Source: Gammaproteobacteria bacterium
GTDB taxonomy: Bacteria; Pseudomonadota; Gammaproteobacteria; Steroidobacterales; Woeseiaceae
DNA length: 64,000 nt
Assembly: GCA_022600955.1 (NCBI GenBank)
Contig: JAHZJK010000024.1
Location: forward strand, 122,003-186,002
Reading direction: 5' to 3'
Positions 10,128 to 44,357 of the stretch are shown piece by piece (position 1 is the stretch's first letter; each line of letters starts with the position of its first letter). The notes beneath the pieces are model-generated. The model was not told the DNA's origin and made no database searches. It was given only the letters and a program-made list of their open reading frames with translations. A program made the position numbers and the translations under genes.

Positions 10128-10778
10128 ATGCTTGAGCACTCTGAAACGGATACTCAGGCAGGTCATCACGCGTTGCGAAATCAGCCACGCAAATTCCCAG
10201 GCGTTAGCGACGACAAATCCGATGCGGAGTTGTTTGCGGCATTTCGTGACGAAGGTGACATGGTGGCATTCGAGACGCTGTTCACGCGTCACAAGAATGC
10301 GGTCTACCGGTATCTGTGGGCGTTATCCGGCAGCAACGCCATAACCGAGGATGTGTCGCAGTTCTGCTGGTTAAAACTCGTCGAAGATACGGGCGCCTAC
10401 CGTCCCCGACCCGGTGTTTCACTTCGAAGCTATTTGTACAAGATTGGCCGCAACCGCTACATCGACGAATACCAGCGAAAGCACGTTGAAAAGCTGTCAG
10501 ACAGCCTGACCGATCAGCCGACACTGGTCGCGTCCGGAGGCAGCGCTTATGAATCGGCGATGCAGGAGGAAACGCAAGACCTGATGCAACGAGCGATCGC
10601 CGAATTGCCTTTCGATCAGCGCGAAGTGCTCGCACTGTGGCTGCAGGGATTCAGCATCAAAGAAATGATGGACGAAGTCGACGCGCCCAGAGACACCGTC
10701 CTGAGTCGCAAGAAATACGCCTTAAAAAAACTACGCCATGCGCTACCAGCGCTCAGCCCGAGGGCTATCGATGGATAA
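10128..10778 (+). CDS. ECF-type RNA polymerase sigma factor (sigma-70 family)
   Basis: Region 2 (FETLFTRHKNAVYRYLWALSG...DVSQFCWLKL) and region 4 (ELPFDQREVLALWLQGFSIKEMMDEVDAPRDTVLSRKKYALKKLR). Start is uncertain (ATG 10128 or 10104; the track ORF starts at 10038). Confidence 0.85.
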   Translation: MLEHSETDTQAGHHALRNQPRKFPGVSDDKSDAELFAAFRDEGDMVAFETLFTRHKNAVYRYLWALSGSNAITEDVSQFCWLKLVEDTGAYRPRPGVSLRSYLYKIGRNRYIDEYQRKHVEKLSDSLTDQPTLVASGGSAYESAMQEETQDLMQRAIAELPFDQREVLALWLQGFSIKEMMDEVDAPRDTVLSRKKYALKKLRHALPALSPRAIDG

Positions 10779-11301
10779 TGACGACGACGACCTGCAACTT
10801 CGCGCCGAAGCGAAGCGACATGCACCGCGGCCATCCGCGGCGCACGATGAAGCCGTTCTGAGCGCTGCGAGAGCGAAGGCAAGGCACAAGAAGCCGCGCC
10901 GCCCACAACGGCGCTGGCTGATGGCAGGTGTCGGCCTCGCGGCGTCTGTATTCCTCGCCATCGGCCTGCTGCAAACACAATCGACGGTAGTGCCAGACGT
11001 TGATCGTTCCGGGGGAGGTGCGGATGCTGCAGCCTGGCCATCCGGGAACGTGGAGTTGTCGTCACAGCCAACCGAGTTTCGCTGGTCGGAACAAGGAGAC
11101 GACAGTCGCTACCGGCTTCGCCTGCACAATGACGCAGCTGAGTTACTGTGGGAAAGCGACTGGGTGTTGACGGCACAAGTTTCAGTTGACGAAGAAGTTG
11201 CGGCGCTGCTGAGTTCCGGTGAGCGCTATTTTTGGATTGTTAACGTTGAAGGAAGTATGTCAAACCCGTCCATGGGACCCTACTGGTTTCGAATCCAATG
11301 A
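10771..11301 (+). CDS. Single-pass membrane protein, candidate non-canonical anti-sigma factor
   Basis: ATG 10771 overlaps the sigma factor stop (ATGGATAA). About 50-aa charged N-terminus, one TM (LMAGVGLAASVFLAIGLL), about 105-aa C-terminal domain. No HxxxCxxC zinc anti-sigma motif. The call rests on position only. Confidence 0.55.
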   Translation: MDNDDDDLQLRAEAKRHAPRPSAAHDEAVLSAARAKARHKKPRRPQRRWLMAGVGLAASVFLAIGLLQTQSTVVPDVDRSGGGADAAAWPSGNVELSSQPTEFRWSEQGDDSRYRLRLHNDAAELLWESDWVLTAQVSVDEEVAALLSSGERYFWIVNVEGSMSNPSMGPYWFRIQ

Positions 11302-14300: not shown

Positions 14301-14723
14301 ACCGAGAACGCCGAAAACGGCTACCTTCAGGCATGGGAAATTTACGAGAGCGTAAGAACGGACGCAGAGTTGGTGACGTTGTCCGGCTGCGAAACGGCGC
14401 TTGGATCGGCGTACCCTGGCGAAGGACTTATGGGGCTGACACGCGCTTTTCAGTACGCTGGCGCCTCGTCCGTCGTCGCGTCACTCTGGAACGTCAACGA
14501 CCGATCATCCAGTCGACTGATGACAGAATTCTATGGCTATCTGGAAGCGGGTGAGTCCAAGGAGGCTGCCCTGCAACTTGCACAGTTGGCCATGGTTAAC
14601 AGCGGCAACGAAAAAGGCTGGTGGCAAGGCCTCCTGGACCGGCTCTTCGAAAGCGATAGCAAACCCGCAGACGCACACCCCTACCACTGGGCGGCGTTTG
14701 TCCTCAATGGCCGCGGCGGCTAG
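11298..14723 (+). CDS. Secreted TPR-repeat / CHAT-domain (caspase-like) protease
   Basis: ATGA overlap with the upstream gene. Signal peptide (ALFAWLTCLFLGSVNA/AD). Long TPR array (repeated ...A..Y..AL.I... units). C-terminal CHAT with His978 (YLHFAAHTVID, codon 14229-14231) and Cys1031 (LSGCETALG, codon 14388-14390). Confidence 0.9.
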   Translation: MNARTKAHALFAWLTCLFLGSVNAADETALELEVTSAGQHFMAEKAGIEQGDRLIAWSRVADDAPEPRLNYFNGPFDIYELEREQHLVDPIVLHGTRAGEPVTFLPRDGRWRLGVAPVWSDDAMVSVNAFKAAIEDGSIDDGIATATALANRLATDGRALDSAWVRYQTAALLGRKAEWTASVDMFRQAIEQLPIDEQMQQRNKTARALLLYYQSGALLQQDRLDEAKASYEEALALEESISPDRFGIAANLTGLSDIPRVRGDLIAAARLLEKAIRQLQRIAPESMIVAATVSKLGFIAVQSGSLEEAESHFQHSLRIYTEKDPNGVAASSNINNHGIISYMRGDLAMAAVMFERARQAKLRLEPGSKGLATAIHNVGLVNAERGNYRAAESYYLEALDLLEELVPGSLETTQTLNNLGSVALDQGDLAKAEHYHGRAYELRRELVPNSPDIVASLTNLGSVARYRGDYETANDHLLEALAIQQRIAVGSKQHARILQGLGAVAGSRDDIPGSTDYFRQALELYKEIAASGPGVAESHARLGFNNLKRKDFVAAASELNQAAEILSQIAPATHREARVLHGLAQVSRHQGDMKAAEDIFEKALRALDSQHARLGGTQESKAESRARHRSIYQDYIDFLLEIGDEERAFEILERSRSKVLSDLLVERDLVFNNDLPAELERERRMLAVAYEKTQANLLNASGAEKIAALRTELEEGRRKQDDVRRRAREHSAAFVDLQENRPLSLQEIRATLAPGTVVLSYNVGETDTRIFALSPSGELGVKNLNLGRDEIGSKVQRFRYLIDAGRWDETPATPLNELAEELYADLMAPFDEFAAAATRILIVPDGALNLLPFAALRREAASGDTQYVVEWKPLFVTNSLSVQAQLRANGKIAQSKTLVAFGGADYTNARARPTSSATVRGGAESTEPLPDLPWSAAEVNNIPFAERDRATIFLGQEATEENAKSLPRSTSYLHFAAHTVIDERSPLDTAIVLTVPDTESQTENAENGYLQAWEIYESVRTDAELVTLSGCETALGSAYPGEGLMGLTRAFQYAGASSVVASLWNVNDRSSSRLMTEFYGYLEAGESKEAALQLAQLAMVNSGNEKGWWQGLLDRLFESDSKPADAHPYHWAAFVLNGRGG

Positions 14724-31939: not shown

Positions 31940-33544
31940 CTACTGACTCCGGGAACTCTTGAGTGCGTCAGCGATCCTCTCTTCGTTCGAGTCGACAATA
32001 TACTTGCCAACGGCGATCAGGAAGTCTTGTTCCTCTTCTGTGATGTTGTAGGACGTCTTAACTTTTCGCGCCAGCTCGAACGGAGATTCAAGATCCGGGT
32101 TGTCAGCCCTGACCTTACTGATTGATGCTTGAGCAGTACCCACGACCGAGTAGTAGTTTTGCAGCTCGTCGAACAACTGTGCCACCTTTGAAGGGTCTTC
32201 CTCGTGCAAATCGCCGTCCATGGGTCGATACAAATCATCAAAGCTCAGGTAGATGACGTGGGAGTCCGGCCGTAAGTCGAACGATGCCAACGTTTGCCTC
32301 GCCCGCCCCCGGGCACCGTTCAGCGGCATATTCGGCAGCTTCCGATACACGTTGAGAAAGTTCGGTCCACCTTTGCTGCGGGAATACGGCGAGAACTCAC
32401 CAGGGTATGCGTCGATCACAATCAGGACCTTCTTGAGATCGTCATTGACCCTATTTTCGAGCAAGGATATCGCGGTATGAATACCGAGATTATCGGATAC
32501 GCCACCGTCAATCAGATGCAGATAAGGATTCCTGGGGGCGTCGTACGATGCGCCAAGTGTCTGGGGGGCGATCAGTGACGGGAAGTTGCCGCTGGCCGTC
32601 AGGCCCAGGGACAGTGGCACGTCGTAATAGAAATTTTCATTTTCCAAACCAGTATCGCGCCGGACATACTGCATTCGATGGACGTATTCGTTGATCTCGT
32701 AAATCTCTAGAATATCCGGCGTGAATGGAAAGACCGCCCCATTCTCCAGGACCGTTGCGTTTGCAATCCACATAGGCAAACGGATCGACGTGACTGTCGA
32801 AGCTTTGGGGAATACTTCGCGCAAAGTCATCTGCCGCTGCCCGTTGAACTCAAGCCAGTTCCCAGCAAGTAATTCGGTAGCGAACGCTTGTTCCAGAACA
32901 TCACCCCGGTCGAAGTTGGTGAATATGACTTTGGGATTCAGCAAGGCCGATGCAATATTGCCATGGTAGCCACGCTCAAGGTGACGTCGCAGACACGGGT
33001 CAGTGGTTTGCTTTGGCCGAGACTCCAGAGTCTGACGATAGAAGTCCAACAATCGTTTGGACTGGCACACTGAGGACAGCTTCTCATCGCGCGTTTGCAT
33101 CGCCTGCGCGAACGAATACGGCGCCGCCGATTCGGCGGCCAATTTCGCATGGGAATAGAATGAGGAAAAATAAGCCGCCGCAGCCATACCGCCGCCGGAC
33201 ACAGTGGAAAAGTAGTCGACCTCTTGCAACACGTTATTTTCGCCGTCCAGATACGCAACTTTCTCCAGACCCAACAACGCTCCAACACCCAGGTTACCGG
33301 CCCGCTGCCCGCCACCTGAAATCGCGACAGCCAGGGCCAACCGGTTGTCGTTGTGGCTGCGAGCCTCGACCGACGCGTACTCGATGAGATTTACGATGGG
33401 CGGCTGAAACAGGTGGCCGTTTTGAACTGGATGCCGACTGCTATCCAGATTCCTTGTTGCACACGCCGACAATGCGGTCGTAAATAGCATGCACACAACG
33501 AGTCTGAATGGCCGGTCGATTGCGTTTCGTATGATTCCTGTCAT
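31940..33544 (-). CDS. Patatin-like phospholipase, lipoprotein
   Basis: Lipobox TALSAC. Oxyanion motif ISGGGQRAG. Nucleophile-elbow variant TVSGGG. Catalytic Asp motif LIDGGVSDNLG. Confidence 0.85.
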   Translation of the reverse strand: MTGIIRNAIDRPFRLVVCMLFTTALSACATRNLDSSRHPVQNGHLFQPPIVNLIEYASVEARSHNDNRLALAVAISGGGQRAGNLGVGALLGLEKVAYLDGENNVLQEVDYFSTVSGGGMAAAAYFSSFYSHAKLAAESAAPYSFAQAMQTRDEKLSSVCQSKRLLDFYRQTLESRPKQTTDPCLRRHLERGYHGNIASALLNPKVIFTNFDRGDVLEQAFATELLAGNWLEFNGQRQMTLREVFPKASTVTSIRLPMWIANATVLENGAVFPFTPDILEIYEINEYVHRMQYVRRDTGLENENFYYDVPLSLGLTASGNFPSLIAPQTLGASYDAPRNPYLHLIDGGVSDNLGIHTAISLLENRVNDDLKKVLIVIDAYPGEFSPYSRSKGGPNFLNVYRKLPNMPLNGARGRARQTLASFDLRPDSHVIYLSFDDLYRPMDGDLHEEDPSKVAQLFDELQNYYSVVGTAQASISKVRADNPDLESPFELARKVKTSYNITEEEQDFLIAVGKYIVDSNEERIADALKSSRSQ

Positions 33545-33588
33545 GTTGTTGTTTGACCATTTTGCATGAGAGTCGTTATCCGGTCGGC

Positions 33589-36174
33589 TTATACCTGAAT
33601 CTTCGCAGGCGTATTGTTCGCGCGCTCAATCCAGAACTCAACGTCCGGCATATCGTAGGTCTTTTGCCAACGTCGATTCTTGGCGTACTCGTTCAGGGTT
33701 GCTGTCAGATCGGCCGGATTTGCAACCTTCAGATCGCCGACGGTGGTTATCTTTGCGTCGAACAACAAATTGACATCGTCTATCTCGATGCCCTGCAGAC
33801 TGGCGATTTCTACGGCTAGCGCCCAGTCGGTCAGAACCTTCAGGCCGGTATCGATGTTCCTGCTGATCGTCGTCCGCTGCTTGATCGTTTCGGCGCGCAG
33901 AAGCATGTCTGAAACGGTACTGATTTTCTCCTTCTTTAGCTTTGCGGCATCCGCGGCGCCGATTGTCTTCAATCTGCCAAGGACAGTCGGCGGTGAAATG
34001 ATCGGCTGCACTTTCTTGACGAAAATATCGTCGTACGCCGCGCCGCTCTGCGTCCTTAAGAACTCTAGCGATCTGTCCTCATCGACATCTCGTTTCTCCA
34101 GTGGACTGAGCCAGTAGCTCTTTTCAAGATGCTCCAGACTCGCAGCCAGATTACTGTCACGTGCATTATCTTTACCTCGATTGTGCTCGACGGCGGCCCA
34201 TTCCGAAAATGCGCAGGCAAGATTGTACTGTGTCCTGGCAAGCGGATGACGGGCTTGCTGCAGCGACGTGATAAACGAACCGCCCATCGAAATAAGGTCT
34301 TCGCCGACCTTCACGATTGACCTTCTGCGCTCATCAAGTTCCTCGCTCTTGGCCAATTCTCCTTTGTCAATCACCTCGTTGCCCTTTTCGACTTTGGCAG
34401 TGCCGACAGCAATCATCAATCCGCCTCGCATGGCGTCGTTCACCGTTCTCAAGTTTTCCAGGTAGCGACGGAGTTCGCCCCGGAAGTCGTCGACCGTAAG
34501 CAACGATAGAAACACCGTGATGTTGCTGAGTATCCTGAGTTCTCTAACGCGTACCTCTATCGCGTCTGTCAACTTTTCGGAGAGCTCCAACGCATTCGCG
34601 TTTGCGTCAGTAACGCCCTTCGTATTCTGTCGGTTCTGATGAATGAGCGACGCCAGCTTGTACATCGCAAGGTAGTGCGACTGCTCGTTTGGATACGGGG
34701 CGAACGGACTGCGGAACTTTATGAATGGCAGCGCCGACGCTTGAGTGTTGATGCACTGGACCCACAATTGTTCGGCGAAAAGCCAGCGTTTCTCCCGCCG
34801 GGCAATTTCCGCGAGGTTTATTTTGGCGATCGACAGGCTCGAGTCTTCTTTCAGGGCTTCGATATAGAGCTCTTTTGCGGCGTCGTAATTCTTGACGCGA
34901 TCTTCCGTCAGTGCGGCCTGAAACAGGGAATAAGCCCGCCAGGAGCTGGTATCCAAAGCTCGAACCAATTGCCTTTTCTGACGGCCAGGGAACAATGATT
35001 GAGCACTCAGCCGAAACAATAGCCAGATCGCTGCATAGTTCGCCAGACGTTCGAAGTCGCCCGATTGATCTACATTCGAACCACTGGCTTTTTCTTTCCT
35101 TGCTTTTCCACCGGCTGAAAACTCAGATTCCCAAAGCGTCACGCCGTCGCTTCGACCGCGATGACTGGTGACGAGAATAGTGAGCCCTGCCCCCTTCGTA
35201 TCGGAATCGAGCAGGTGACCCATCACTGTGAAACTCTTTCTCGGAAGTATTTTTTCGAGTAGCGACGGGAGGAGCTGAATCAACGGGTTTTGCAAGGGCG
35301 TCGGTAGCGATTGCGTCACGCTACCGGGCAGCGCAACGCCTTCGAGATTGCCGCTGGCACGGGTGACTGAGCCCGCGTGCCCATGTCCAAGTTCCTTATA
35401 TGCGGCCTGCATGAGAGCTTTCACATCTGCCCCGGGGCTCTTGGCGATTCCCTTATCGCTGAAATCTTGAAACAAGAGGCTTGGCCTGGCGACAATGTAT
35501 CGCCACGGTATCCGCAGAATAAACGCGACGATAACGGCGAAGATCAAAATTTCCAGCACCGGCAGCAGATACGTGCGTATCCAGAGTTTGGCAATTCGCC
35601 ATTCGACGATTCCGCCGCCCTCGAGATACCTGAGGTTTTCGGGCACAGCCATTTCCGGGTTTTTCTGCAGGGCCAGCGTTAGTGCTTTAAGTGCTTCGGA
35701 ATCCGCACCGAGTTCAGCGAGCCTGTTGACCGATTGTGCGGCGACTTCATGTTTTTTTGCATTGATAAGCTTGATCTGCGCGGTCACCCTTCGGTCGGCC
35801 AGCGCTTCGGGCGGCAGGGTTTTTATTGCCGCTAATGCCGCGTCGAACTCGTTAGCACCGAGCAGAATCTCTGCGCTGGCCAATGCAGCTTCGATTTTCT
35901 TTTCCGCGTTTGTGGCCGATTGTTCTGCCGCAGCTGCCAATTGTTGCTTCACAGCCGCCGCAAGAACTCGTGCGCTATCGGCTCTGCATAGTTTGACCTT
36001 GGGGTCGGCCGACGGCGACCTGATCTCGGATTTCGCCTGCTCGAGCAGGCCGGTATCGATCAATGCATCCAGGTAGGCGCATTCGCTTTGCGCCGTCGCA
36101 GTACCTGCAAGACACATCAACAACATTCCCGAGATGCACACTAACGAGGCGCGAGTAGATACTGCTTCGTGCAT
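33589..36174 (-). CDS. 861-aa bitopic membrane protein: signal peptide, helical periplasmic region, one TM, cytoplasmic TPR-like region, tandem DUF4332/HhH-like C-terminal repeats
   Basis: Signal peptide MLLMCLAGTATA/QSE. TM WIRTYLLPVLEILIFAVIVAFIL. TPR-like YDAAKELYIEALKEDSSLSIAKINLAEI. C-terminus LKTIGAADAAKLKKEKISTVSDML and IASLQGIEIDDVNLLFDAKITTVGDLKVANPADL. Confidence 0.75.
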   Translation of the reverse strand: MHEAVSTRASLVCISGMLLMCLAGTATAQSECAYLDALIDTGLLEQAKSEIRSPSADPKVKLCRADSARVLAAAVKQQLAAAAEQSATNAEKKIEAALASAEILLGANEFDAALAAIKTLPPEALADRRVTAQIKLINAKKHEVAAQSVNRLAELGADSEALKALTLALQKNPEMAVPENLRYLEGGGIVEWRIAKLWIRTYLLPVLEILIFAVIVAFILRIPWRYIVARPSLLFQDFSDKGIAKSPGADVKALMQAAYKELGHGHAGSVTRASGNLEGVALPGSVTQSLPTPLQNPLIQLLPSLLEKILPRKSFTVMGHLLDSDTKGAGLTILVTSHRGRSDGVTLWESEFSAGGKARKEKASGSNVDQSGDFERLANYAAIWLLFRLSAQSLFPGRQKRQLVRALDTSSWRAYSLFQAALTEDRVKNYDAAKELYIEALKEDSSLSIAKINLAEIARREKRWLFAEQLWVQCINTQASALPFIKFRSPFAPYPNEQSHYLAMYKLASLIHQNRQNTKGVTDANANALELSEKLTDAIEVRVRELRILSNITVFLSLLTVDDFRGELRRYLENLRTVNDAMRGGLMIAVGTAKVEKGNEVIDKGELAKSEELDERRRSIVKVGEDLISMGGSFITSLQQARHPLARTQYNLACAFSEWAAVEHNRGKDNARDSNLAASLEHLEKSYWLSPLEKRDVDEDRSLEFLRTQSGAAYDDIFVKKVQPIISPPTVLGRLKTIGAADAAKLKKEKISTVSDMLLRAETIKQRTTISRNIDTGLKVLTDWALAVEIASLQGIEIDDVNLLFDAKITTVGDLKVANPADLTATLNEYAKNRRWQKTYDMPDVEFWIERANNTPAKIQV

Positions 36175-36197
36175 TCGAAAAATCGTCCGCTCCTTAG

Positions 36198-36551
36198 CTA
36201 GGGCAGGAGTTCGTTGCTTATCGAATTGGTGCGCTGATTTGCAAACGCTGTCGCGGACACGGCAGAGCGCATCTTCGGGCTTGTAATGTTGCGCTTGAAA
36301 TCCTCGAGGTTGGTATTGGCGGTATCCCAGACTGCGTGCAACTCAGCCGTCTTGCCGGGGTTCGCGCTTAGGCCAACGTCCATCCTGTCGTATTGGGCAT
36401 GAATTTGAGAGGTTAGGAACAAGGTATGTTCCGCCAACTGAAAGAACACTGTTTGCTCTTCAATCGTTAACAGTCCGTTACTATTCAGATCGTAACAGTG
36501 TGCTGTCGCCGTGCTCATTTTGTGTAGTATCGAATCCAGGTCTGCGGACAT
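36198..36551 (-). CDS. Small hypothetical protein with one EF-hand-like loop
   Basis: GGGAGA RBS about 8 nt before ATG 36551. DLNSNGLLTIEE fits the D-x-N-x-N-G-x-L-x-x-x-E EF-hand loop consensus. 22-23 nt gaps to both neighbours. Confidence 0.55.
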   Translation of the reverse strand: MSADLDSILHKMSTATAHCYDLNSNGLLTIEEQTVFFQLAEHTLFLTSQIHAQYDRMDVGLSANPGKTAELHAVWDTANTNLEDFKRNITSPKMRSAVSATAFANQRTNSISNELLP

Positions 36552-36573
36552 TTGATGTCTCCCATTCCGTGTT

Positions 36574-37620
36574 TCAGTTGAATAGCTTTACGATGTTAAG
36601 CATCGCCTTGAAGGCGGCTTTAACCTGTTGCTTGTTTTTCTTCGCGATCCGTGCGCGTTGTTCCTTCGTGAGGTTTCCAGCGAAACCCGCCTGCAGAGTC
36701 TTGTGGCTTCGAATCAGCCCGCGGAGTCCCGCAGCTAGCGAATCGGGCCTCGATGCGTTGCTCAGTCGTTGTGACTCGGGCTCGTAAATTCCCCGCAGTA
36801 TGTCTTCACGCTCCTCCTGTGACAGCTCAAGTCGTTCGTCAAGCGGCATCCGATTGTAGGTATTTCGGGTGATCTCGGTTCGGCGACGTGCGAAGTTGTC
36901 GGACATCGGCTTGTCGACTTTTTCGTAACTGGACAGGAGGCTTTCCAATGCAACATCTACGGCTGGAGCTTTCGTTGTGACCAGCTTCTTCAATTTGGCA
37001 AAATCGGCCTGGTCTTGCTCGGCATTACGGACCAGGTCAATCAGTGTGCCGACAGCACCGAGTTGTTTTTCGAGTTCTTCTTTTGCCTCGTCCTCGGCGG
37101 ACGTGTCACCCTTGAGCTCGTCGATCTGGTTCTTGAGTTCGTTCAGTCGCGAGTTCAGATCCTTTAGGTCGCTTGCCGTGTCAAATGTTTCATCTTCCAG
37201 GATATTGGCCAGCGCCTGCTGATAGTTGGCGACTGTCGCAATGAGCGAAACCATCGTTTGTCGCCTTTGATTCGCCTGCGGAGAAAAGGACGCAGGCCGG
37301 ATCTTCTTCCATTCTGTACACGCGTCGGCCTCGGATGCCTGACAGTCTCGCCAGAGCAATTTCTCGTCGCTAGTCAGGCATCGACTCTCGTCTGCCTTAT
37401 AGAGCAATGGGGATTCCGCATTGCAGCTGGGCCGTGCAGCAAGAAATTCGATCATGTAGTCAAATTGCTGCTGACCCAAGTTGTCGTAGTAGTGGCGTGT
37501 TGTGGTCAGGGACGCGTCGATGAGCTTGACGACAGCTTCAGAGTCTTCTTTGAGCACCTCGGCCGTGCTGCTGCAACCGGCGAGGCCTGCCAGCAAGACC
37601 GGGACGAAGAATGCTTTCAT
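36574..37620 (-). CDS. Coiled-coil lipoprotein
   Basis: MKAFFVPVLLAGLAGCSS lipobox (alternative ATG at 37632 and TTG at 37665). Charged helical segments (DLKDLNSRLNELKNQIDELKG). Confidence 0.65.
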   Translation of the reverse strand: MKAFFVPVLLAGLAGCSSTAEVLKEDSEAVVKLIDASLTTTRHYYDNLGQQQFDYMIEFLAARPSCNAESPLLYKADESRCLTSDEKLLWRDCQASEADACTEWKKIRPASFSPQANQRRQTMVSLIATVANYQQALANILEDETFDTASDLKDLNSRLNELKNQIDELKGDTSAEDEAKEELEKQLGAVGTLIDLVRNAEQDQADFAKLKKLVTTKAPAVDVALESLLSSYEKVDKPMSDNFARRRTEITRNTYNRMPLDERLELSQEEREDILRGIYEPESQRLSNASRPDSLAAGLRGLIRSHKTLQAGFAGNLTKEQRARIAKKNKQQVKAAFKAMLNIVKLFN

Positions 37621-38044
37621 ATTTGGAACCATTGCTCTTAGCCTGCGTTGAACGAGAGAGACCAAATGGCATGGTCCCTGCGATCATCCCTGATGCAGGA
37701 TCGGGTAATGGTGTTATTCGGGCTGCAACTGAATCCCGGGGTCTCTTCTCATTATTTTCGTTGCGTATTGGCCCCCTACCAGCAAATGAAAGACTACACT
37801 CAAAAACGAATTTGGTAAATATCGACCAAAAAATGAGCTTTGGAGCAAAACGTAACGTCCTGATTAGGTGGTCAAATTGAGCTGCGACGGATTCGAGCGA
37901 GTGCTGATGGCAGGCGGTATTTGCGAGGATTGCTTGGACTGGTGTTGCAAACGCATTCGTTATCCAGTGTTTTCCCGCAAAGATAGCCAACACAGCAGAT
38001 TCAGCTATATTTAGTATTACAGTCCCAAGTGTGGAGTGGTATCG

Positions 38045-39799
38045 ATGGCGAAAGGATTTGAAAAACTACGACTCAGCGGGCGGGATATGCCGCCACCAGG
38101 GCCGGGGCTCGCGGGAATCGACCGTCCGGCCGACACAGGCGAACACTCAAACGAAGACGCAGCGCGCCAGTTTGTCCTGCGTGTCGCCGCGGCCGACGAC
38201 AGGCCCTTTATTCGTTCAATGGCTGCGGTGGTCGATGAGACACCTGACGCCGCAGCGCCTCAGCTTGTTAAACTCGTAGATCGAACAGAGCCGATCACCT
38301 CGACGGCGATGGTGCACTTTCAACAATCGCAGAACGACATACCGGTTTTCGGTTCCAGAGTCGTTGTTGAGCTCGATGACAATCAGGAGACAGTGTCCGC
38401 ATCGATGGATCTGGCTGCGCTTGACGATGTCGACCTGCTGCCCGGACTTAGCGGTGCGGCGGCACTCAGTATGTTGGCGACAAGCGTTCATGTTGAAGAC
38501 CTCGGCATGATTCCTGATCCGCAATTGACGATATTGCCGCACCCACACCAGAACGGGCGTCTGTATCTCACCTGGCATTTCCGGGGTGTACCAGCGGAGC
38601 CGATACCATCGAGCGAGGATGACTCAGACGAGGTGCACCTCGCTTGCTTCGGAGACGCGGAACCACTGCAGGGCGACTACGATTTTTTTCTCGACGCTCA
38701 CAATGGCGAAGTGTTGTACTTCTTTCCAAAGTCCGCTCATCTGGACATCCCGACCCGGTGCCAGGGCGAGGATGAGGACGGCGTAAACCAGTCATTCTTC
38801 GGCCGGCTCGGCAACCCCGGGTTCGCGATGGAGAACCCGTTTGAAGACGTCAACACCTACGACCTTGGGTTGCAGCCGATAGAAACGACGCCGATCCCGG
38901 TGGACACAGTACGTAACGCGACCAGTGACTGGCAGAACAGCAATCCGGCTGCAGTCTCGGCACACGTCAATGCAACCCGCGTGCTGGAATTCCTGTTTCG
39001 CATCCTGCGCCGCAACAGCATCGATGATCAGGGCATGGTCCTGCAGAACATTGTGAACTGCGCAAGCAATCAGGCACAAAATCCGCCTGAATGGATTAAC
39101 GCGGTCTGGTGGCAGGGCCGCATGTGGTATGGGCAGGAAGAGCAGGGCGATGGGAGTTTTGTGAGCCTGTCACGGTATCTCGATATCATCGGCCATGAGT
39201 TGTTTCACGGTGTCACTGAGCATACTGCCGGCCTGGTCTATGAAAGCTTGCCTGGTGCCCTGAATGAGTCATTCAGCGATATTTTTGGCGTCATTATTCG
39301 CAACTGGCACCTCGCTCCCAATGCAGGTGACGTTGCCACCTGGACATGGGACATTGGTCCTGGCCTTGGGTCTGGCGGCGGGCCAATGCGAAGCATGTCG
39401 AATCCGTCAAGCGTGGGACGTTGGCGACGGCCGGATCCGAACGGACCCGGTGATGTCATCGTAAATGGCTATCCGGATCACATGAACCAGCATGTTGTAT
39501 TGCCGGCAACTCGTCGTTACGACTGGGGTGGTGTGCACATTTTCAGCAACATTCACAATCTGGCTGCACACAATGTGCTAACGACTCGAAAGCCGGACAA
39601 CAGCGTCGTTTTTTCCCCGGAAGAAGTTGCCATCCTGTACTACCTGGTTCTAACGCGACTCGGCAGCCTTTCAGAGTTCGACGACGCGAGGGCCGAGCTC
39701 CTGGTGGTGTCCGATACGGTTTATGCGGGAGACGCCGTGCGCCAACAGGTTGCGCGCTCGGCAATTGAGTCATCTTATGACGCGGTTGGAATTAACTAA
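38045..39799 (+). CDS. M4 (thermolysin-family) zinc metalloprotease with long N-terminal pro-region, no signal peptide
   Basis: GGAG at 38033-38036, then ATG at 38045. HELFH at 39194-39208 (IIGHELFHGVTEHTAGL). Third zinc-ligand motif GALNESFSDIFG. The N-terminus MAKGFEKLRLSGRDMPPPGPG has no hydrophobic segment. Confidence 0.9.
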   Translation: MAKGFEKLRLSGRDMPPPGPGLAGIDRPADTGEHSNEDAARQFVLRVAAADDRPFIRSMAAVVDETPDAAAPQLVKLVDRTEPITSTAMVHFQQSQNDIPVFGSRVVVELDDNQETVSASMDLAALDDVDLLPGLSGAAALSMLATSVHVEDLGMIPDPQLTILPHPHQNGRLYLTWHFRGVPAEPIPSSEDDSDEVHLACFGDAEPLQGDYDFFLDAHNGEVLYFFPKSAHLDIPTRCQGEDEDGVNQSFFGRLGNPGFAMENPFEDVNTYDLGLQPIETTPIPVDTVRNATSDWQNSNPAAVSAHVNATRVLEFLFRILRRNSIDDQGMVLQNIVNCASNQAQNPPEWINAVWWQGRMWYGQEEQGDGSFVSLSRYLDIIGHELFHGVTEHTAGLVYESLPGALNESFSDIFGVIIRNWHLAPNAGDVATWTWDIGPGLGSGGGPMRSMSNPSSVGRWRRPDPNGPGDVIVNGYPDHMNQHVVLPATRRYDWGGVHIFSNIHNLAAHNVLTTRKPDNSVVFSPEEVAILYYLVLTRLGSLSEFDDARAELLVVSDTVYAGDAVRQQVARSAIESSYDAVGIN

Positions 39800-39898
39800 T
39801 CTGACAGCGTTGCTGACAAAACGACGGCCAGGATTTCCCAATTGCGGCTTGTGGGTGTATTTTACCAATAGCGTGTCAGATCGATAAGGAAAAAAACA

Positions 39899-41698
39899 AT
39901 GTCGGCCGCTACACGGATTATTACTCAGCTGGTCGAGGAAGCCCGAGACCAGCGCGGCTTCCTGCAGCATTCGCCCGTTCGCACTGGCGTTTGGCGGCGC
40001 TTACTTGAGCGCCCGGGCGAAAAGATCAACCTCCTCATGATTCCGCTTCGTTCCACAACAGCCGGCCGCCTTTGTGTCGCGGTCAATGAGGCGATGGAAG
40101 GAGCGCGGGGGACAGAGCCGTGCACCTACAATCAGTCCGTCGCTTGTGGCCAATTTACCTTCGACACCCTCGTGATACGTCTGTTGCCCTTATCACGATG
40201 GTGGCAACGGAAGATCGAACCGGATATCGATCTCGTTCTGGACCTCGCTGCTTCGGGTTCCAGTCACTCACTATGGAAAAATGTGTGCGAGGACCTGAAG
40301 CAGGCGCGCGCCAGCGGCCGGAGCTCCGGACTTTCGCCGGACATGCTTTGGTGTATCAGAATGCTCGGAATCACTCAGCGAGCGCTGTCATCCAAGTCGG
40401 CAAATCCACAATGGCCCGGGCCGTCCAGCCAGGTAAAAGCGGCCGCCGAGCTATTCAAGAAAGCGCGCCGGAAACAAATCAAAGGTGCAGGGGAGCAACT
40501 GTTCGCGGTCGCGATCAATCGGCCTGCCGTACCTTGCCTCAGGGAGTCCGTACGTACCATCAAGGGCGACGCGTCGCGTGAAGTTTTCGATATTCGCTGC
40601 AATCGAATTACCTGGGCGGTTATCGATAGCGGAATTGATCGGCGGCACCCGGCGTTCGGCAATGGAAAAGGCGGTGATCGGATTGTTGAAACGCTCGACT
40701 TTACCGAGTTTGGCACCATGCTCTCGCTTGCCTCGTCCGCCAACGACGACGACCACGTCAGCCTGAGGGATACCTACGGCCTAAGTGCTGCCCAGGTGCG
40801 GAAGATCAGTCGCTCTATCAGGGCGGGTGATCCGGTTGACTGGGAGATCGTGGCTGCCGCGCTCCGAGTAGACCGGGGAGACGATTATTTTGATGCGCTG
40901 GATCCTCACGGAACCCAGGTTGCGGGCATCGTCGGTGGAGCGCCGTGCGAGGAGCAGATCAATGGTCAGACGGTGAGCAGGCCCGGTGGTGTTTGTCCCG
41001 ATATCAAGCTTCTCGACCTGAGAGTAATTCGCGGTGTGGCCGGCGATGAGAATACCGAATTCTACGTTATCAGCGCACTGCAATACATCGACTATCTGAA
41101 CCGAAACAAAGATAAGCCTGTCGTGCACGGCATCAACATGAGTCTGTCAATTCCGCATTCTGTAACCGACTACGGTTGTGGCCGCACGCCGATATGCGAT
41201 GAGTGCGACCGACTGGTATCAAGTGGAGTAGTGGTCGTCGCCGCCGCCGGTAACTATGGGTTCGACAGAGCTGACATTACAGGCCCAGCGAAAACAGGCG
41301 GCTACCGAGATATTTCGATTACCGACCCCGGGAACACTGAATCCGTCATCACCGTCGGATCCACTCATCGTAAACACGCTCACCGCTACGGGATCAGTTA
41401 CTTCTCAAGCCGCGGACCGACCGGTGACGGCCGTGCGAAGCCGGACCTGGTTGCGCCGGGTGAGAGCATCGAATGCCCTAGTCGCAATAACACCTACGAG
41501 GCCTGCTCCGGTACGAGTATGTCAGCACCGCACGTCAGCGGTGCCGCGGCGTTGCTCATGGCGCGCCACACAGGACTTATTGGTGAGCCCGGGCACGTCA
41601 AAGACGTGCTCTGTGCCAATGCCACAGATCTTAAACGAGCCAGCGAGAGCCAGGGGCGCGGACTTCTGGACGCTCTTCGCGCTCTGCAGGCCTTGTAG
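39899..41698 (+). CDS. S8 (subtilisin-family) serine protease with ~230-aa unassigned N-terminal domain, no signal peptide
   Basis: Catalytic triad Asp243 (WAVIDSGID, 40625-40627), His337 (HGTQVAGIVGG, 40907-40909), Ser540 (GTSMSAPHVSGAAALL, 41516-41518). Confidence 0.9.
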   Translation: MSAATRIITQLVEEARDQRGFLQHSPVRTGVWRRLLERPGEKINLLMIPLRSTTAGRLCVAVNEAMEGARGTEPCTYNQSVACGQFTFDTLVIRLLPLSRWWQRKIEPDIDLVLDLAASGSSHSLWKNVCEDLKQARASGRSSGLSPDMLWCIRMLGITQRALSSKSANPQWPGPSSQVKAAAELFKKARRKQIKGAGEQLFAVAINRPAVPCLRESVRTIKGDASREVFDIRCNRITWAVIDSGIDRRHPAFGNGKGGDRIVETLDFTEFGTMLSLASSANDDDHVSLRDTYGLSAAQVRKISRSIRAGDPVDWEIVAAALRVDRGDDYFDALDPHGTQVAGIVGGAPCEEQINGQTVSRPGGVCPDIKLLDLRVIRGVAGDENTEFYVISALQYIDYLNRNKDKPVVHGINMSLSIPHSVTDYGCGRTPICDECDRLVSSGVVVVAAAGNYGFDRADITGPAKTGGYRDISITDPGNTESVITVGSTHRKHAHRYGISYFSSRGPTGDGRAKPDLVAPGESIECPSRNNTYEACSGTSMSAPHVSGAAALLMARHTGLIGEPGHVKDVLCANATDLKRASESQGRGLLDALRALQAL

Positions 41699-41722
41699 GC
41701 ATCATACGAGGAGGTTCAAAAC

Positions 41723-42859
41723 ATGTTCAGTTTCGAAGCGCTCAAAGCCAAGCACGGTGACTCGTTGCTCGTCCATTATGGACCGGAAAACAATCCAAGG
41801 ATGATCATCATCGACGGTGGGCCTTCGGGCGTCTGGGAGTCGGCGCTCGAACCACGCCTTAACCAGATTTCTCATTTTCGCGATCTTCGACCTGTTCCGG
41901 CCAGACTGACGATGGTTAGTCATATCGACAACGACCACATCACCGGCGTGAAAAAGATGGTCGAACACATACGAGACAGCCAGGATCCGGTTGTCGACGT
42001 ACAGTCAATATGGCACAACTCATTCGACAACCAGATTGGAAACTCTGAGCTGGCAATGTTACAGGCACTGGGAAACACGTCGCCGTCTGTGGCGGCCTCG
42101 ATGGGCCTGGGTCATTTCGTGAAGAGTATTGCAGCCGGCTTATCCGCGGGCAAAAAACTCCGCCAACTGGTCTCTCAGCTCGGGCTGGTCGTGAACTCTG
42201 GCGGACAGCAGGCGGGCTTTATCTCCGAGGGTGACAGTTTCAATGTCGGGCATGGCACGAAATTGACAGTTCTCAATCCTGACCGCGGGCAGCTCACTGG
42301 GTTGCAGCTCAAATGGGATAAGGTCGCGAACAAGCTTGGGGGTCTCTCGGACGCGCAGAAGAAGATCGTCCTTGCACGCGTCGCAGAAGATTCTCTCGCC
42401 AATATTTCGTCAATTGTTGTACATGTCAAAAAGGCCGGCAAGACGATGCTGTTGACCGGAGACGCACGCGGCGACCACGTCATTAGCGGGCTGAAGGGTG
42501 CTAACCTGTTACAGGGCGGCAAGGCTCACGTAAATATTCTCAAGATTCCTCACCATGGCAGTGACCGCAACGTCGATACAGATTTTTTCAAAACCGTGAC
42601 GGCTGATCACTACATATTCTCCGGTGACCGTGATCCTCAGTTCGGCACAAATCCCGATCGTGCGACCTTCCAGATGGTCGCGGAAGTTCGTGGATCGCAG
42701 AAATACACGATGCACTTTACGCACAGCGACAGCACTATTCGACGCTGGATTCGCGAAGACAGGCAGCAGCATCCGAGTCGCAAGTACGAAGCCGAGTTCC
42801 CTCGGTCACAGGACTTCGGCATCTGGATCGACCTCGATAACGACGCACTCTGGTTCTGA
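41723..42859 (+). CDS. Stand-alone MBL-fold hydrolase of the ComEC/Rec2 type
   Basis: VSHIDNDHITG (H-x-D-x-D-H variant, about 41918-41947), LLTGDARGD and LKIPHHGS, as in the ComEC C-terminal domain. No TM segments. 24 nt downstream of the S8 gene. Confidence 0.85.
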   Translation: MFSFEALKAKHGDSLLVHYGPENNPRMIIIDGGPSGVWESALEPRLNQISHFRDLRPVPARLTMVSHIDNDHITGVKKMVEHIRDSQDPVVDVQSIWHNSFDNQIGNSELAMLQALGNTSPSVAASMGLGHFVKSIAAGLSAGKKLRQLVSQLGLVVNSGGQQAGFISEGDSFNVGHGTKLTVLNPDRGQLTGLQLKWDKVANKLGGLSDAQKKIVLARVAEDSLANISSIVVHVKKAGKTMLLTGDARGDHVISGLKGANLLQGGKAHVNILKIPHHGSDRNVDTDFFKTVTADHYIFSGDRDPQFGTNPDRATFQMVAEVRGSQKYTMHFTHSDSTIRRWIREDRQQHPSRKYEAEFPRSQDFGIWIDLDNDALWF

Positions 42860-42926
42860 GGTCGGCTCGAGTCGAAAAAACCCAAGAGGAAATCAGCGAG
42901 CGGCGGCCACAGATTGGCGGGCAAGA

Positions 42927-44357
42927 ATGCGAGGCGGAATGGCAGAGAACAAGAAGAACGACATACCGGATCCAGTCAGCGAGATTATCAAGTCGCCACT
43001 TGATAGTAACTACACGATGAATCGCAATCGGGTTGTTTACTTAGGCATCGCGTTTGTGGTCCTGGGTTTAACGGGCGGTGTGCTTGACGGCCCGTTTGGG
43101 CGCGTCGAACTCAGACCCGAAGTTTGGTTTCTTGCCTCGGTGCTTGGTCTCGCAGCAAGTATTCTGATGATGCTGGAGTTACGGCGTGTGGCCAAAGTCA
43201 GCGTGCAATTCTGGAAGCGGAACTGGGAAGCGGAGTACGACCGTTTTCGATTGTACGTTGCCGATGCGCTGCCGGGGTTTCGACAAACGCTGGCGCAGCA
43301 GGCACAAGAGCAAAAACTGAATGACTTGAAGAAGGAGCTCGCTGAAGTCGATGAGAATCTCGCCAGACGGACGGGTGGCCAGGCAGACGCTTCCGACCGC
43401 TCGGAGCTACATGAGAAAAAATCCCGAATCGATGACTGGATTAACAACCCGGCGAATATTCCAATTGAAGAAAAGAGCCGGTACGCGGATAGCGCATTCT
43501 CAAAGACCCTGAATCAGTTCAGTAGCCCGTCCAGCGAAAACTGGGATAAAGGTGACGATGAATTCGGTTACGTTCTGAACGAGAAGAATATTCGTTACGA
43601 TATCCTGGTCAGGACAGAGGAGCAGTTCGCCAACCACTCAAGACGCTACAAGAAAGCACCCGGACGTGTGTACCTGCCCCTCTGGGGTGTGGCGGCCGCA
43701 ATTCTCATCGCCTGGTTCGTGTTCGTATTGGGTCAGAGGCCAGTCAAAGAGAGCGCCCCGACACTGGCCCAGATTATTCGGGAAGAGAGCCGCATGTGGC
43801 GCACGTCGGAGCTGTTCAATAGCCGGCGTGCAGATGGTGTACTGGTCAACTTTTGGGTGAACAACCGTAACGACGGTATAACGATGGCGTTCCCGGCGTT
43901 CGCGAAAGAAGAAGGTACGCTGGACGAGGCATTGGGCAAGCCGATCAGTGAGTTTCTTAAGCCGGTTCTGTCTGACGTCACTGACTGCAATAGCGACACC
44001 GAAACGGTAAAACTTCGGATTCGAGCGTTTGCTGACGGTGCGAGTTTTAACACGACGAAGAGCAATGAACAAAACCTCTCGTTGGCGAACAAACGAGCCG
44101 AAAGTTTCAGGTCCTGGCTAGGCAACCTGCCGCTCGACAATGGACGCAAGGCTGGCGCTGAGTTTGAGATTGGCGTGCACGAGTGGGGCCCAGAGGATTA
44201 CCCGGCAATGCGGCGAGCTGCAGGCTACAACGACTCTTTGGCCGGAGCTTATTCGGAGCGGGCCGGGCAATTGAGTCGGCGAGTTGAACTCAAGGTCTCC
44301 TATGCGGCGCAGTGTGAATGGGGCAGGGTGTTCGGATCCATGGTGTTGCCGAACTAA
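42927..44357 (+). CDS. Three-TM membrane protein with cytoplasmic coiled coil and C-terminal OmpA/MotB-like peptidoglycan-binding domain
   Basis: The track ORF (from 42624) overlaps the MBL gene. First non-overlapping ATGs are 42927 and 42939. TMs: VVYLGIAFVVLGLTGGVL, VWFLASVLGLAASILMML, VYLPLWGVAAAILIAWFVFVLG. OmpA_C-like NLSLANKRAESFRSWL ... LSRRVELKVSY. Confidence 0.75.
   Translation: MRGGMAENKKNDIPDPVSEIIKSPLDSNYTMNRNRVVYLGIAFVVLGLTGGVLDGPFGRVELRPEVWFLASVLGLAASILMMLELRRVAKVSVQFWKRNWEAEYDRFRLYVADALPGFRQTLAQQAQEQKLNDLKKELAEVDENLARRTGGQADASDRSELHEKKSRIDDWINNPANIPIEEKSRYADSAFSKTLNQFSSPSSENWDKGDDEFGYVLNEKNIRYDILVRTEEQFANHSRRYKKAPGRVYLPLWGVAAAILIAWFVFVLGQRPVKESAPTLAQIIREESRMWRTSELFNSRRADGVLVNFWVNNRNDGITMAFPAFAKEEGTLDEALGKPISEFLKPVLSDVTDCNSDTETVKLRIRAFADGASFNTTKSNEQNLSLANKRAESFRSWLGNLPLDNGRKAGAEFEIGVHEWGPEDYPAMRRAAGYNDSLAGAYSERAGQLSRRVELKVSYAAQCEWGRVFGSMVLPN

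Follow-up and report, generated by a model that had tools for sequence, protein, structure and literature searches.

In experiments, trypsin- and caspase-linked homologues in the protease-associated MBL family carry two gating insertions, undergo double cleavage and exhibit dsDNase activity, and all relatives of this family tested experimentally act in phage defense (Tuck et al. 2025, PMC12799240; Evans et al. 2025, bioRxiv 10.1101/2025.11.14.688446). The trypsin-MBL pairs comprise HamM with HamAB (Hachiman), Avs1a/Avs1b, Avs2-MBL, Lamassu and DRT variants (PMC12799240; 10.1101/2025.11.14.688446). The MBL proteins associated with S8 proteases were named "clade 3" in the preprint of Evans et al. 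2025, which only places this clade on a tree and refers to "distinct sensor associations" (10.1101/2025.11.14.688446).

The locus described here lies in a window of 64,000 nucleotides, which is the whole stretch of DNA that was analyzed, and is surrounded there by a housekeeping context without mobility genes. Eight ORFs are arranged in two blocks that diverge from an intergenic region of about 0.4 kb, at the positions given by an earlier, sequence-only reading, and the gaps recomputed from the ORF coordinates, 22, 23 and 44 nt between the minus-strand genes and 99, 24 and 67 nt between those of the plus strand, agreed with that reading. The minus-strand block encodes envelope proteins, namely a coiled-coil lipoprotein of 352-363 aa (ORF 36574-37665, feature 36574..37632; lipobox LAGC), a 117-aa orphan (36198-36551), a bitopic orphan of 861 aa with a C-terminal DUF4332 (33589-36174; Pfam DUF4332, 4e-14) and an exported patatin-like lipoprotein (31940-33544; Pfam Patatin, 3.5e-12; lipobox LSAC). 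The plus-strand block encodes an M4 pro-metalloprotease (ORF 38036-39799, feature 38045..39799), an S8 subtilisin-like protease of 599 aa (39899..41698; Pfam Peptidase_S8, 1.2e-38), an MBL-fold hydrolase of 378 aa (41723..42859) and an orphan membrane protein of 472-476 aa with three hydrophobic segments, hereafter the 3-TM protein (ORF from 42624 or 42927 to 44357, feature 42939..44357). The start of this last gene is most likely the ATG at 42939, which is preceded by GAGG 6 nt upstream, gives a protein of 472 aa and a gap of 79 nt to the MBL gene, and agrees with the NCBI call and with the homologue alignment. The earlier description of lipoproteins and transmembrane segments also held, including the segment at residues 197-229 of the 861-aa protein, which in addition has a signal-like segment. 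The catalytic motifs that had been quoted were all present in the translations, and no NTPase, secretion-system or mobility gene was found in or beside the locus. The AT-rich stretch pointed out near 36.2-36.6 kb corresponded to a modest dip, with a GC content of 0.495 at 36200-36599 vs about 0.55-0.56 in the window.

The region is probably best explained as a mosaic whose sole conserved unit is the S8-MBL pair (39899-42859), a protease-gated pro-nuclease cassette of the subtilisin "clade 3" with no known sensor fused to it. One genome per species was scanned for related loci, which returned 469 stretches with relatives, and the best 80 loci were analyzed. In 78 of these 80, a full-length S8 protein with the same N-terminal domain was encoded directly upstream of the MBL gene on the same strand, with a median gap of about 28 nt (24 nt in the window), and the 80 loci span Acidobacteriota, Planctomycetota, Gemmatimonadota, Actinomycetota, Myxococcota and Proteobacteria, among others. 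The pairwise distances of the S8 and MBL proteins were correlated (r = 0.87), a value reached by 0 of 999 permutations, although simple co-inheritance would also produce such a correlation. One relative (P0198, 1107 aa) contains the MBL, the N-domain and the S8 domain fused in a single protein, and the relatives at 81%, 61% and 60% MBL identity have only S8 and MBL in common with the window.

The same loci bear on the proposal of the sequence-only reading that all eight genes, organized in two co-regulated divergent operons, constitute one undescribed envelope-linked conflict or defense system, in which the membrane proteins and lipoproteins sense or anchor and the four hydrolases execute. The tight spacing within each block, the shared divergent region and the lack of predicted terminators in the plus-block gaps speak for such a system. 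However, the M4, 3-TM, 861-aa, 117-aa and coiled-coil proteins had no match in the best 80 S8-MBL loci, where none of the six other window genes recurs, and because homologues of these genes are not syntenic with S8-MBL elsewhere, the eight-gene proposal is largely refuted and must be considered very unlikely. Its notion of a triggered self-destruction module is well supported for the S8-MBL pair, which is conserved, co-varying and homologous to the MBL pro-nucleases of AVAST, Lamassu and Hachiman, which a partner protease activates (PMC12799240; 10.1101/2025.11.14.688446), and does not fit the other six genes. The closest relative (L003; S8 75% and MBL 81% identical) lends the eight-gene arrangement some further weight, since there the S8-MBL pair stands at the end of a tight seven-gene cluster whose five upstream genes encode orphan envelope proteins similar in size and type to those of the window, among them a polytopic protein of 475 aa, a lipoprotein of 361 aa with a coiled coil and a helical protein of 115 aa. 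Nevertheless, there was no detectable similarity between the envelope proteins of the two loci (BLAST E > 0.1; hhalign probability 0.5%), and membrane proteins were not significantly enriched among the genes linked to the pair (25/53 vs 241/626).

A patatin gene is the sole recurrent third gene beside S8-MBL elsewhere, which would also favor the eight-gene arrangement: among the immediate neighbors of the pair (n=101), only Patatin recurs, in 13 cases, with all others found at most twice. These patatins are cytoplasmic, whereas that of the window is a predicted exported lipoprotein different from them and sharing only motif-level similarity (33 bits). Moreover, it had no PADLOC match, leaving the analogy drawn with CapV without support, and no plasmid relatives.

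In the rest of the minus block, a single homologue of the 861-aa protein (39% identity, without DUF4332) was found among 5.8 billion protein clusters, with unrelated neighbors and none of the proposed partners; the DUF4332 assignment of the earlier reading was upheld, but not its TPR assignment, as HMMs detected no TPR and returned only a sub-threshold MIT match. The 117-aa protein, previously described as EF-hand-like, matched nothing in Pfam, PADLOC or NCBIfam and presents a single 12-residue loop-like motif. The coiled-coil lipoprotein had only weak coiled-coil-type matches, including a sub-threshold one to LmuB/SMC, and no plasmid relatives. In the plus block, the 3-TM protein matched no family of Pfam, PADLOC or NCBIfam, and searching the PDB by profile up to E <= 10 retrieved no OmpA-type chain, so that neither the OmpA/MotB-like domain ascribed to it nor the comparison with Zorya could be sustained. 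Its only homologue among 5.8 billion protein clusters (45% identity) stands alone in an unrelated neighborhood, without any of the proposed partners. The M4 protein combines Pfam Peptidase_M4, M4_C and FTP propeptide matches, with a thermolysin-like catalytic domain and without a signal peptide or hydrophobic N-terminus, and its relatives at 53%, 37% and 31% identity are located in other contexts.

These two flanking genes could nonetheless belong to a lineage-specific operon of three or four genes, in which the pair recruited the 3-TM protein, and perhaps the M4 protein, as a sensor, an anchor or a second protease. Such an operon is compatible with the common strand, with the absence of a predicted terminator from the two gaps (99 nt and 67-79 nt), and with the variable same-strand genes that occupy the same slots in other S8-MBL loci (patatin, DUF2235 and a TPR-S protein). 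In addition, the M4 relative at 53% identity, which has no signal peptide, is followed after 22 nt by the gene of an Endonuclease_NS that likewise has none in one locus (L092), another protease-nuclease adjacency. This extended operon is considered rather unlikely, since M4 and 3-TM accompany S8-MBL in no other of the best 80 loci, the sole 3-TM homologue is isolated from such partners, the M4 relatives adjoin tyrosinase, GH16 or nothing recognizable, and the S8 gene, which follows a 99-nt gap, is preceded by a good ribosome-binding site of its own (AAGGA). The six other genes are regarded as probable lineage-specific neighbors of the cassette.

The S8 protein has no hydrophobic segment and is thus expected to be cytoplasmic. 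It matched the PADLOC 'subtilase' model PDLC03014 (1.8e-36), and its catalytic domain (40604..41698, with the Pfam match at residues 240-586) contains the triad Asp243, His337 and Ser540, whose codons start at 40625, 40907 and 41516, respectively. D243 and H337 were invariant in 47 relatives, and S540 and N452 were at least 90% conserved. In the AF2 model (pLDDT 82), the best Foldseek matches of this domain were subtilisins and pro-subtilisins (E ~1e-16). The preceding N-terminal domain (approximately residues 1-235; 39899..40603) is family-specific and mostly helical, is confidently modeled at residues 30-205, and had no Pfam, NCBIfam or PDB assignment. A search of 1.84 billion representative proteins found 231 relatives of this domain at E <= 1e-3; in the best 150 of these 231 the match lies at or near the N-terminus in all but one, the fusion P0198, and about 95 of the 150 are 560-760 aa long, the shorter ones probably being fragments. 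The N-domain plus S8 architecture was verified with Pfam in 8 of 10 relatives, and the conserved positions of the domain include R20, Q23, P26, W32, L46, P49, P97 and W101. Within the cassette, no other domain is a candidate for a sensing or regulatory role.

These features also concern the possibility that the proteases are common exoenzymes, secreted to scavenge nutrients, and that the hydrolases cluster by coincidence. The M4 protein, with its classical FTP propeptide and thermolysin-like catalytic domain, fits this explanation, as do its plasmid relatives, which sit among secreted-enzyme-like genes (GH16, tyrosinase), and the co-location of the four hydrolase classes is indeed largely coincidental. 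However, the topology analysis confirmed that S8, MBL and M4 lack a signal peptide or hydrophobic N-terminus, the conserved 235-aa N-domain of S8 is not a propeptide, and the S8 gene is locked to that of a cytoplasmic MBL in 78/80 loci, with both fused in one protein. A scavenging role is accordingly extremely improbable.

The MBL protein likewise has no hydrophobic segment, indicating a cytoplasmic location. Pfam returned a weak Lactamase_B match. The PADLOC models of defense proteins matched strongly: LmuA (PDLC03854) at 1.6e-50 along the full length (3-334 of the 345 profile positions), Avs1a at 8.5e-30 and RTasMBL at 1.1e-26. The NCBIfam Avs1a model matched at 1.1e-35 with 123 bits, the equivalog cut-off of 420 bits being far above, and an end-to-end alignment to the product of an annotated avs1a gene covered residues 9 to 371 at 26% identity. 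H67, D69, D71, H72, D247, H277 and H278 were invariant in 25 relatives. The best PDB fold for the AF2 model (pLDDT 87) was the ComEC MBL domain 9ic4 (266 aa; E 2.7e-12). Between HxDxDH and TGDARGD, the window protein has about 78 residues more than ComEC. The model has a ComEC-like core with two helical insertions of lower confidence, the first at approximately residues 101-140 (42023..42142; pLDDT 63-71 vs 90 or higher in the adjoining core) and the second, formed by two helices, at approximately residues 191-230 (42293..42412; pLDDT 70-77). By analogy with the two gating insertions carried by characterized MBL homologues (PMC12799240), both are candidate gating or cleavage segments. The preprint gives I133 and I233 as the cleavage sites of VcMBL (10.1101/2025.11.14.688446), whose relation to insertion 1 of the window protein is a positional analogy only.

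The MBL is therefore proposed to be a protease-gated pro-nuclease with a ComEC-like DNase core, which would be made in an inactive form with its active site gated by the two insertions. The S8 protease would remain inactive until a trigger, most likely part of a phage or a state brought about by infection, is perceived through the N-domain of about 235 aa; it would then cut the insertions, and the freed Zn-dependent nuclease could degrade DNA, so that the infected cell would stop growing or die. We infer the nature of the trigger and, by extrapolation from the trypsin and caspase clades, the cleavage of the MBL by S8, the DNase activity of the MBL and the defense phenotype.

The genomic surroundings of the pair raise the alternative of a real S8-MBL cassette that is not antiviral, acting instead in programmed death or development, in DNA turnover or as an addiction module. 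The neighbors in other genomes are mostly housekeeping genes and not defense islands, phage and viral contigs yielded no relatives, the cassette is abundant in phyla of the soil whose lifestyles are complex, such as Acidobacteriota, Myxococcota and Planctomycetota, and none of the known sensors (STAND, Hachiman, SMC and RT) is fused or adjacent to the pair. Against such a role, the tested members of the MBL family all function in phage defense (PMC12799240; 10.1101/2025.11.14.688446), and the strongest profile matches were defense-system HMMs. Moreover, the patchy spread across phyla, the occurrence on conjugative plasmids and, in some loci, the CBASS-like, TIR and STAND company are typical of defense cassettes: the S8-MBL locus on the Methylorubrum plasmid pCMU01 is accompanied by a cyclase-E2-TIR operon, ImmA and IS21, and nSTAND and MotA/MotB genes and a TIR-WD40 protein are part of this company elsewhere. 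A non-antiviral cassette is thus judged unlikely.

Regarding the described systems, the S8 protease IetS and the ATPase IetA reportedly take part in phage defense as IetAS (Gao et al. 2020), to which the sequence-only reading had likened the locus. The window shares with it an S8 protease, and the PADLOC IetS models matched the catalytic domain weakly (best E 4.2e-10); however, no IetA ATPase is present, the partner is an MBL nuclease, and the NCBIfam IteS model gave 22.5 bits against a cut-off of 900 bits. Canu (CanABC, Tuck et al. 2025) is similar in that a small stand-alone locus combines a gated MBL pro-nuclease with a non-trypsin protease, not fused to a classical defense ATPase, but its protease is a caspase with an Ig-like domain and it comprises three genes, including CanB, whereas only two are conserved here. 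The trypsin-MBL pairs share with the cassette a homologous MBL (about 380 aa) in which two extra segments at equivalent positions are added to a ComEC-like core, an immediately adjacent protease gene and the co-variation of both proteins; their double cleavage, which yields a Zn-dependent dsDNase, is only proposed for the window pair. Differently from these, the window protease is of the S8 type and not trypsin-like, is encoded first, in reversed gene order, and carries no fused sensor of the STAND, Hachiman, SMC or RT type, and the Avs1a score of its MBL stays far under the equivalog cut-off. Finally, in comparison with clade 3 (Evans et al. 2025, 10.1101/2025.11.14.688446), the window pair stands alone, its protease having only the family-specific N-domain and no third gene being conserved, but it agrees with this clade in the MBL-fold hydrolase gene placed beside an S8 subtilisin-like protease gene, in the full-length homology of its MBL to the protease-associated family and in the wide distribution across phyla. 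The gene combination had been taken as unrecognized; its S8-MBL pairing is already known from that preprint and belongs to a recently described class.

To assess the distribution of the S8 subtilisin-like protease gene (39899-41698, plus strand) and the MBL-fold hydrolase gene that follows it (41723-42859, plus strand), genomes sampled at one per species were scanned using an MBL alignment as query. The scan revealed 469 matching stretches encoding relatives, indicating that the S8-MBL pair is widespread, and the best 80 of these 469 loci, each with 10-kb flanks, were taken as the synteny set, which spanned Acidobacteriota, Planctomycetota, Gemmatimonadota, Actinomycetota, Myxococcota, Verrucomicrobiota, and Proteobacteria. 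Directly upstream of the MBL gene and in the same orientation, 78 of the 80 loci encoded a full-length S8 that shares the N-terminal region of the window protein, the median gap being ~28 nt. Moreover, contigs carrying MBL relatives at 81%, 61%, and 60% identity had only the S8 and the MBL in common with the window, and the pairwise distances of the two proteins were correlated over 67 pairs (r = 0.87, a value reached by 0 of 999 permutations), a signal that co-inheritance alone would also give. The survey of 101 immediate neighbours from ~65 non-redundant loci revealed no conserved third gene, since Patatin alone recurred (13 occurrences) and the other families, mostly housekeeping, appeared at most twice each.

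The S8 protein matched the PADLOC 'subtilase' model (1.8e-36), and its N-terminal 235 residues were confidently modelled as a mostly helical domain that received no family or fold assignment from Pfam, NCBIfam, or the PDB; Foldseek searches with the whole S8 model returned subtilisins only and none for this domain. With the N-domain by itself as query, 231 relatives were recovered from 1.84 billion representative proteins, and most of the 150 listed among them were 560-760 aa long and matched at or near their N-terminus. Ten long or atypical relatives were checked by Pfam, which found the N-domain plus S8 in eight and an MBL fusion in one, and on these matches the N-domain is restricted to this protease family. 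The fusion, P0198, a 1107-aa protein from the representative-protein search, carries the MBL at its N-terminus, followed by the N-domain (457-698) and the S8 domain (701-1096), which supports a functional coupling of the pair. Therefore, the adjacency in 78 of 80 loci, the lack of any other shared window gene, the correlated distances, the N-domain search, and P0198 together show that S8-MBL is a self-contained cassette, and confidence is high that the functional unit is made up of these two genes rather than of all eight.

Some S8-MBL loci lie among defence-type genes, such as nSTAND and MotA/MotB genes in one case and a TIR-WD40 protein in another. For example, on the conjugative plasmid pCMU01 of the cultured strain Methylorubrum extorquens CM4 (locus L094, 1564-8239), the pair is placed directly downstream of an operon encoding cyclase, E2-domain, and TIR-domain proteins, with an ImmA/IrrE peptidase and an IS21 element close by. 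The presence of the pair in a cultured strain would offer a handy experimental model for the S8 clade.

The sequence-only reading of the window had grouped all eight genes of the 31940-44357 locus into a single envelope-linked conflict or defence system, and what it observed was largely correct. The translation and ORF check recovered the eight ORFs at their reported positions, with gaps of 22, 23, and 44 nt between the minus-block genes and of 99, 24, and 67 nt between those of the plus block; a region of ~0.4 kb separates the two divergent blocks. Pfam recovered Patatin, DUF4332, M4 together with the FTP propeptide, and S8, and for the seventh protein only a weak Lactamase_B match. Hydropathy and lipobox scans agreed with the lipoprotein assignments of the patatin (LSAC) and the coiled-coil protein (LAGC), with a signal-like segment plus one transmembrane segment in the 861-aa protein, with three hydrophobic segments in the last plus-block protein, and with the lack of such segments in the M4, S8, and MBL proteins. 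The catalytic motifs were intact in the window proteins and conserved among relatives, and the AT-rich patch noticed at 36.2-36.6 kb corresponds to a modest dip (GC 0.495). Three domain calls found no counterpart: the EF-hand of the 117-aa protein and the TPR of the 861-aa protein had no family match, and the OmpA/MotB domain attributed to the last protein was not reproduced by Pfam, also on re-scan, by PADLOC, by NCBIfam, or by a two-sequence profile search of the PDB, which gave nothing relevant at E <= 10. The 3-TM protein bears just a loose motif likeness to OmpA/MotB (NLSLANKRA...LSRRVELKV). For its gene, ATG 42939 is a more probable start than 42927 or GTG 42624 (window 42927-42941), given the GAGG placed 6 nt upstream, the NCBI call of 472 aa, and the alignment of its sole homologue from that Met; the gap from the MBL gene would then be 79 nt.

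The grouping itself did not hold. A tblastn search with ten window proteins retrieved the S8 and the MBL, no match in any of the 80 loci for the 861-aa, 117-aa, coiled-coil, M4, 3-TM, and flanking proteins, and a single weak match for the window patatin. Six of the eight genes are thus without syntenic homologues elsewhere, an outcome that the sequence-only reading had itself named as telling against its proposal. Among 5.8 billion protein clusters, the 861-aa protein had one homologue (39% identity), lacking DUF4332 and with unrelated neighbours, and the 3-TM protein also had one (45% identity), alone in a different neighbourhood. The M4 protease was considered as a central anchor of the system and rejected, because its relatives come without any other window gene: this applied to the two relatives from metagenomes (53% and 37% identity) as well as to relatives on plasmids (31% identity), the latter from unrelated contexts. 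The plasmid search gave no match for the patatin, the coiled-coil lipoprotein, or the 861-aa protein. Given this lack of synteny, the boundary is placed around two genes and not eight, a correction that keeps a spurious "new system" out of catalogues.

In the contig of the closest M4 relative (L092, 558-12637; the 53% identical protein, also without signal peptide), the protease gene is followed after 22 nt by a gene for a DNA/RNA non-specific endonuclease without signal peptide, and is preceded by genes for exported CHAT, caspase-S8 fusion, caspase, and HEAT-repeat proteins, which constitutes another protease-beside-nuclease arrangement.

The window comes from a metagenome-assembled gammaproteobacterium, where it is part of a scaffold of 1.19 Mb, and its context is housekeeping, including catalase, LysR, RecQ, glutamate synthase, NtrBC-like, and GGT genes. 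No mobility genes, tRNAs, or Rfam matches were present in the window, Pfam and the neighbour check found no NTPase in or beside the locus, and the cassette showed no GC or GC3 contrast and no insertion scars, the repeats around it being at chance level and none bounding it. Elsewhere in the window, a 1141-aa TPR-CHAT protease is encoded ~25 kb upstream of the locus (11298-14723, plus strand), behind two small ORFs (10038-10778 and 10738-11301); this domain pair occurs in bacterial conflict or signalling proteins. A 916-aa protein (7132-9882, minus strand) presents an RCC1-like beta-propeller, PKD domains, and an InlB B-repeat-like C-terminus.

A larger unit was also considered in view of the closest relative of the pair (L003, identical to L011; 462-7421), whose S8 and MBL are 75% and 81% identical to those of the window. 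In this locus the pair is placed at the end of a tight seven-gene same-strand cluster, preceded by five orphan genes encoding a 475-aa polytopic membrane protein, a 159-aa TM protein, a 361-aa coiled-coil lipoprotein, a 188-aa lipoprotein, and a 115-aa helical protein. The envelope proteins among them resemble the 476-, 363-, and 117-aa proteins of the window strikingly in size and type. A radical interpretation is that, in a proteobacterial sub-branch, the pair is wired to fast-evolving envelope proteins acting as surface sensors of phage attack that relay to the cytoplasmic protease; if so, the "envelope-linked" idea of the sequence-only reading would be right in kind, with partners that are non-homologous between genomes. 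The one observation in its favour is that the window and L003 both place the pair by orphan coiled-coil lipoproteins, a ~475-aa polytopic protein, and a ~115-aa protein. The same-strand M4 and 3-TM genes, with no terminator predicted between them and the pair, give residual support to a larger unit, in a promoter and terminator scan that found fewer sites than shuffled sequence and so carries no information on operon structure; the S8 gene has a good ribosome-binding site of its own. On the other side, no similarity was detectable between the envelope genes of the window and of L003 (nothing collinear by BLAST at E <= 50, hhalign probability of 0.5%), and membrane proteins were not significantly enriched among pair-linked genes (25/53 vs 241/626, from crude ORF calls). 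Such envelope wiring is regarded as very improbable. The less radical possibility, and the more likely of the two, is that the S8 N-domain may be a new stand-alone infection sensor, in which case the patatin and DUF2235 proteins encoded beside the pair in other genomes would be second effectors, lipases gated by the protease.

The MBL protein was, together with the S8, one of only two among the eight window proteins to be strongly matched by PADLOC. The match to the Lamassu LmuA hydrolase model covered the full protein (1.6e-50), and it also matched Avs1a (8.5e-30) and the RT-associated MBL, RTasMBL (1.1e-26), besides the NCBIfam Avs1a model (1.1e-35). The residues H67, D69, D71, H72, D247, H277, and H278 were invariant in 25 relatives. 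In all, 3325 relatives of the MBL were found at E <= 1e-5, and none in the phage collection or on viral contigs. ComEC chains were the top PDB matches by sequence and fold alike; the AF2 model (pLDDT 87) has a high-confidence core, and its best match was the 266-aa MBL nuclease domain of ComEC. Onto this ComEC-like core the model adds two lower-confidence segments, predicted to be helical rather than disordered (~101-140 and ~191-230), which make up most of the roughly 110 residues by which the 378-aa MBL exceeds the ComEC domain, ~78 of the extra residues being located between conserved motifs. A protein annotated as Avs1a on a Vibrio plasmid aligns with the MBL end to end, across both of these candidate gating segments.

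Patatin, the only recurrent neighbour family, deserves separate consideration. In 13 loci, a cytoplasmic patatin-like phospholipase of ~380 aa adjoins S8-MBL in the same orientation, with gaps of ~-4 to 98 nt, being upstream of the S8 in nine (L015, L016, L020, L022, L027, L042, L062, L063, and L071) and downstream of the MBL in four (L044, L049, L067, and L069). Similarly, a gene for DUF2235, which is lipase-like, occupies the patatin slot on a Miltoncostaea plasmid (L095, 8130-9437). No paper describing a patatin adjoining S8-MBL was found in a limited full-text literature search. The pair-adjacent proteins may be second effectors, and the recurrence of a patatin, or a DUF2235 protein, beside the pair suggests that lipases too may be protease-gated. 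The window patatin is an exported lipoprotein encoded 6 kb from the pair on the opposite strand, and it was rejected as their orthologue, as it scored 33 bits against their HMM and at the motifs only; its presence is treated as coincidence.

The cassette thus comprises a conserved, co-varying, and occasionally fused cytoplasmic pair with intact active sites, whose MBL is homologous to proven pro-nucleases. In the proposed mechanism, an infection cue would activate the S8 through its N-domain, the activated protease would cleave the two MBL segments, and the cleaved MBL would become a DNase leading to cell arrest or death; this role in defence is proposed with moderate confidence, by analogy with the characterized modules. 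If the N-domain were the sensor, the pair would be among the smallest protease-nuclease immune modules.

In the context of known systems, the closest counterparts are nucleases gated by proteases. Tuck et al. (PMC12799240) described modules, such as HamM/HamAB, Avs1a, and the caspase-linked Canu, in which a ComEC-like active site is blocked by two insertions and DNA is degraded once the partner protease has cleaved both, the hallmarks being protease co-evolution and active-site-blocking insertions. Evans et al. (10.1101/2025.11.14.688446) reported that VcMBL, once cut at I133 and I233, becomes a Zn-dependent dsDNase, and distinguished trypsin-like, caspase-like, and S8 subtilisin-like clades of protease-associated MBLs, of which only the first two were tested. 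The window MBL is alike in its ComEC-like nuclease type and intact metal-binding motifs, and the window pair in its conserved protease adjacency (78/80) and co-variation, whereas the protease differs in being an S8 encoded ahead of the nuclease and fused to no known sensor. In fact, no STAND, Hachiman, SMC, or RT-type sensor was found fused to the S8, the 235-aa N-domain being its sole extra, and because no known sensor is attached, the activation logic of the trypsin and caspase branches is not transferable to the S8 branch.

Other resemblances are partial. The MBL falls below the equivalog cut-off of AVAST type 1 Avs1a (123 vs 420 bits), and its 599-aa S8 partner differs from Avs1b, a protease-STAND of ~1900 aa. 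It matches the LmuA hydrolase of Lamassu, but no SMC gene accompanies it: the coiled-coil lipoprotein was rejected as LmuB (E 0.0017; NCBIfam SMC 15 bits vs a 567-bit cut-off), and no SMC-like family recurred in the 80 loci. The analogies drawn in the sequence-only reading were likewise abandoned. For IetAS, the IetS HMMs match just part of the S8 catalytic domain (best E 4.2e-10; NCBIfam IteS 22.5 bits vs a 900-bit cut-off), and the locus has no ATPase gene that could stand for IetA. For CapV, the window patatin has no PADLOC match, carries a lipoprotein signal, and has no nucleotidyltransferase nearby, and for the MotB/OmpA anchors of Zorya, neither a family match nor an OmpA-type PDB chain at E <= 10 was retrieved. 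By these comparisons, the window contains a clear representative of the S8-linked branch among protease-gated nucleases, most consistent with an S8-MBL cassette of this recently recognised nuclease type that stands alone among lineage-specific neighbours.
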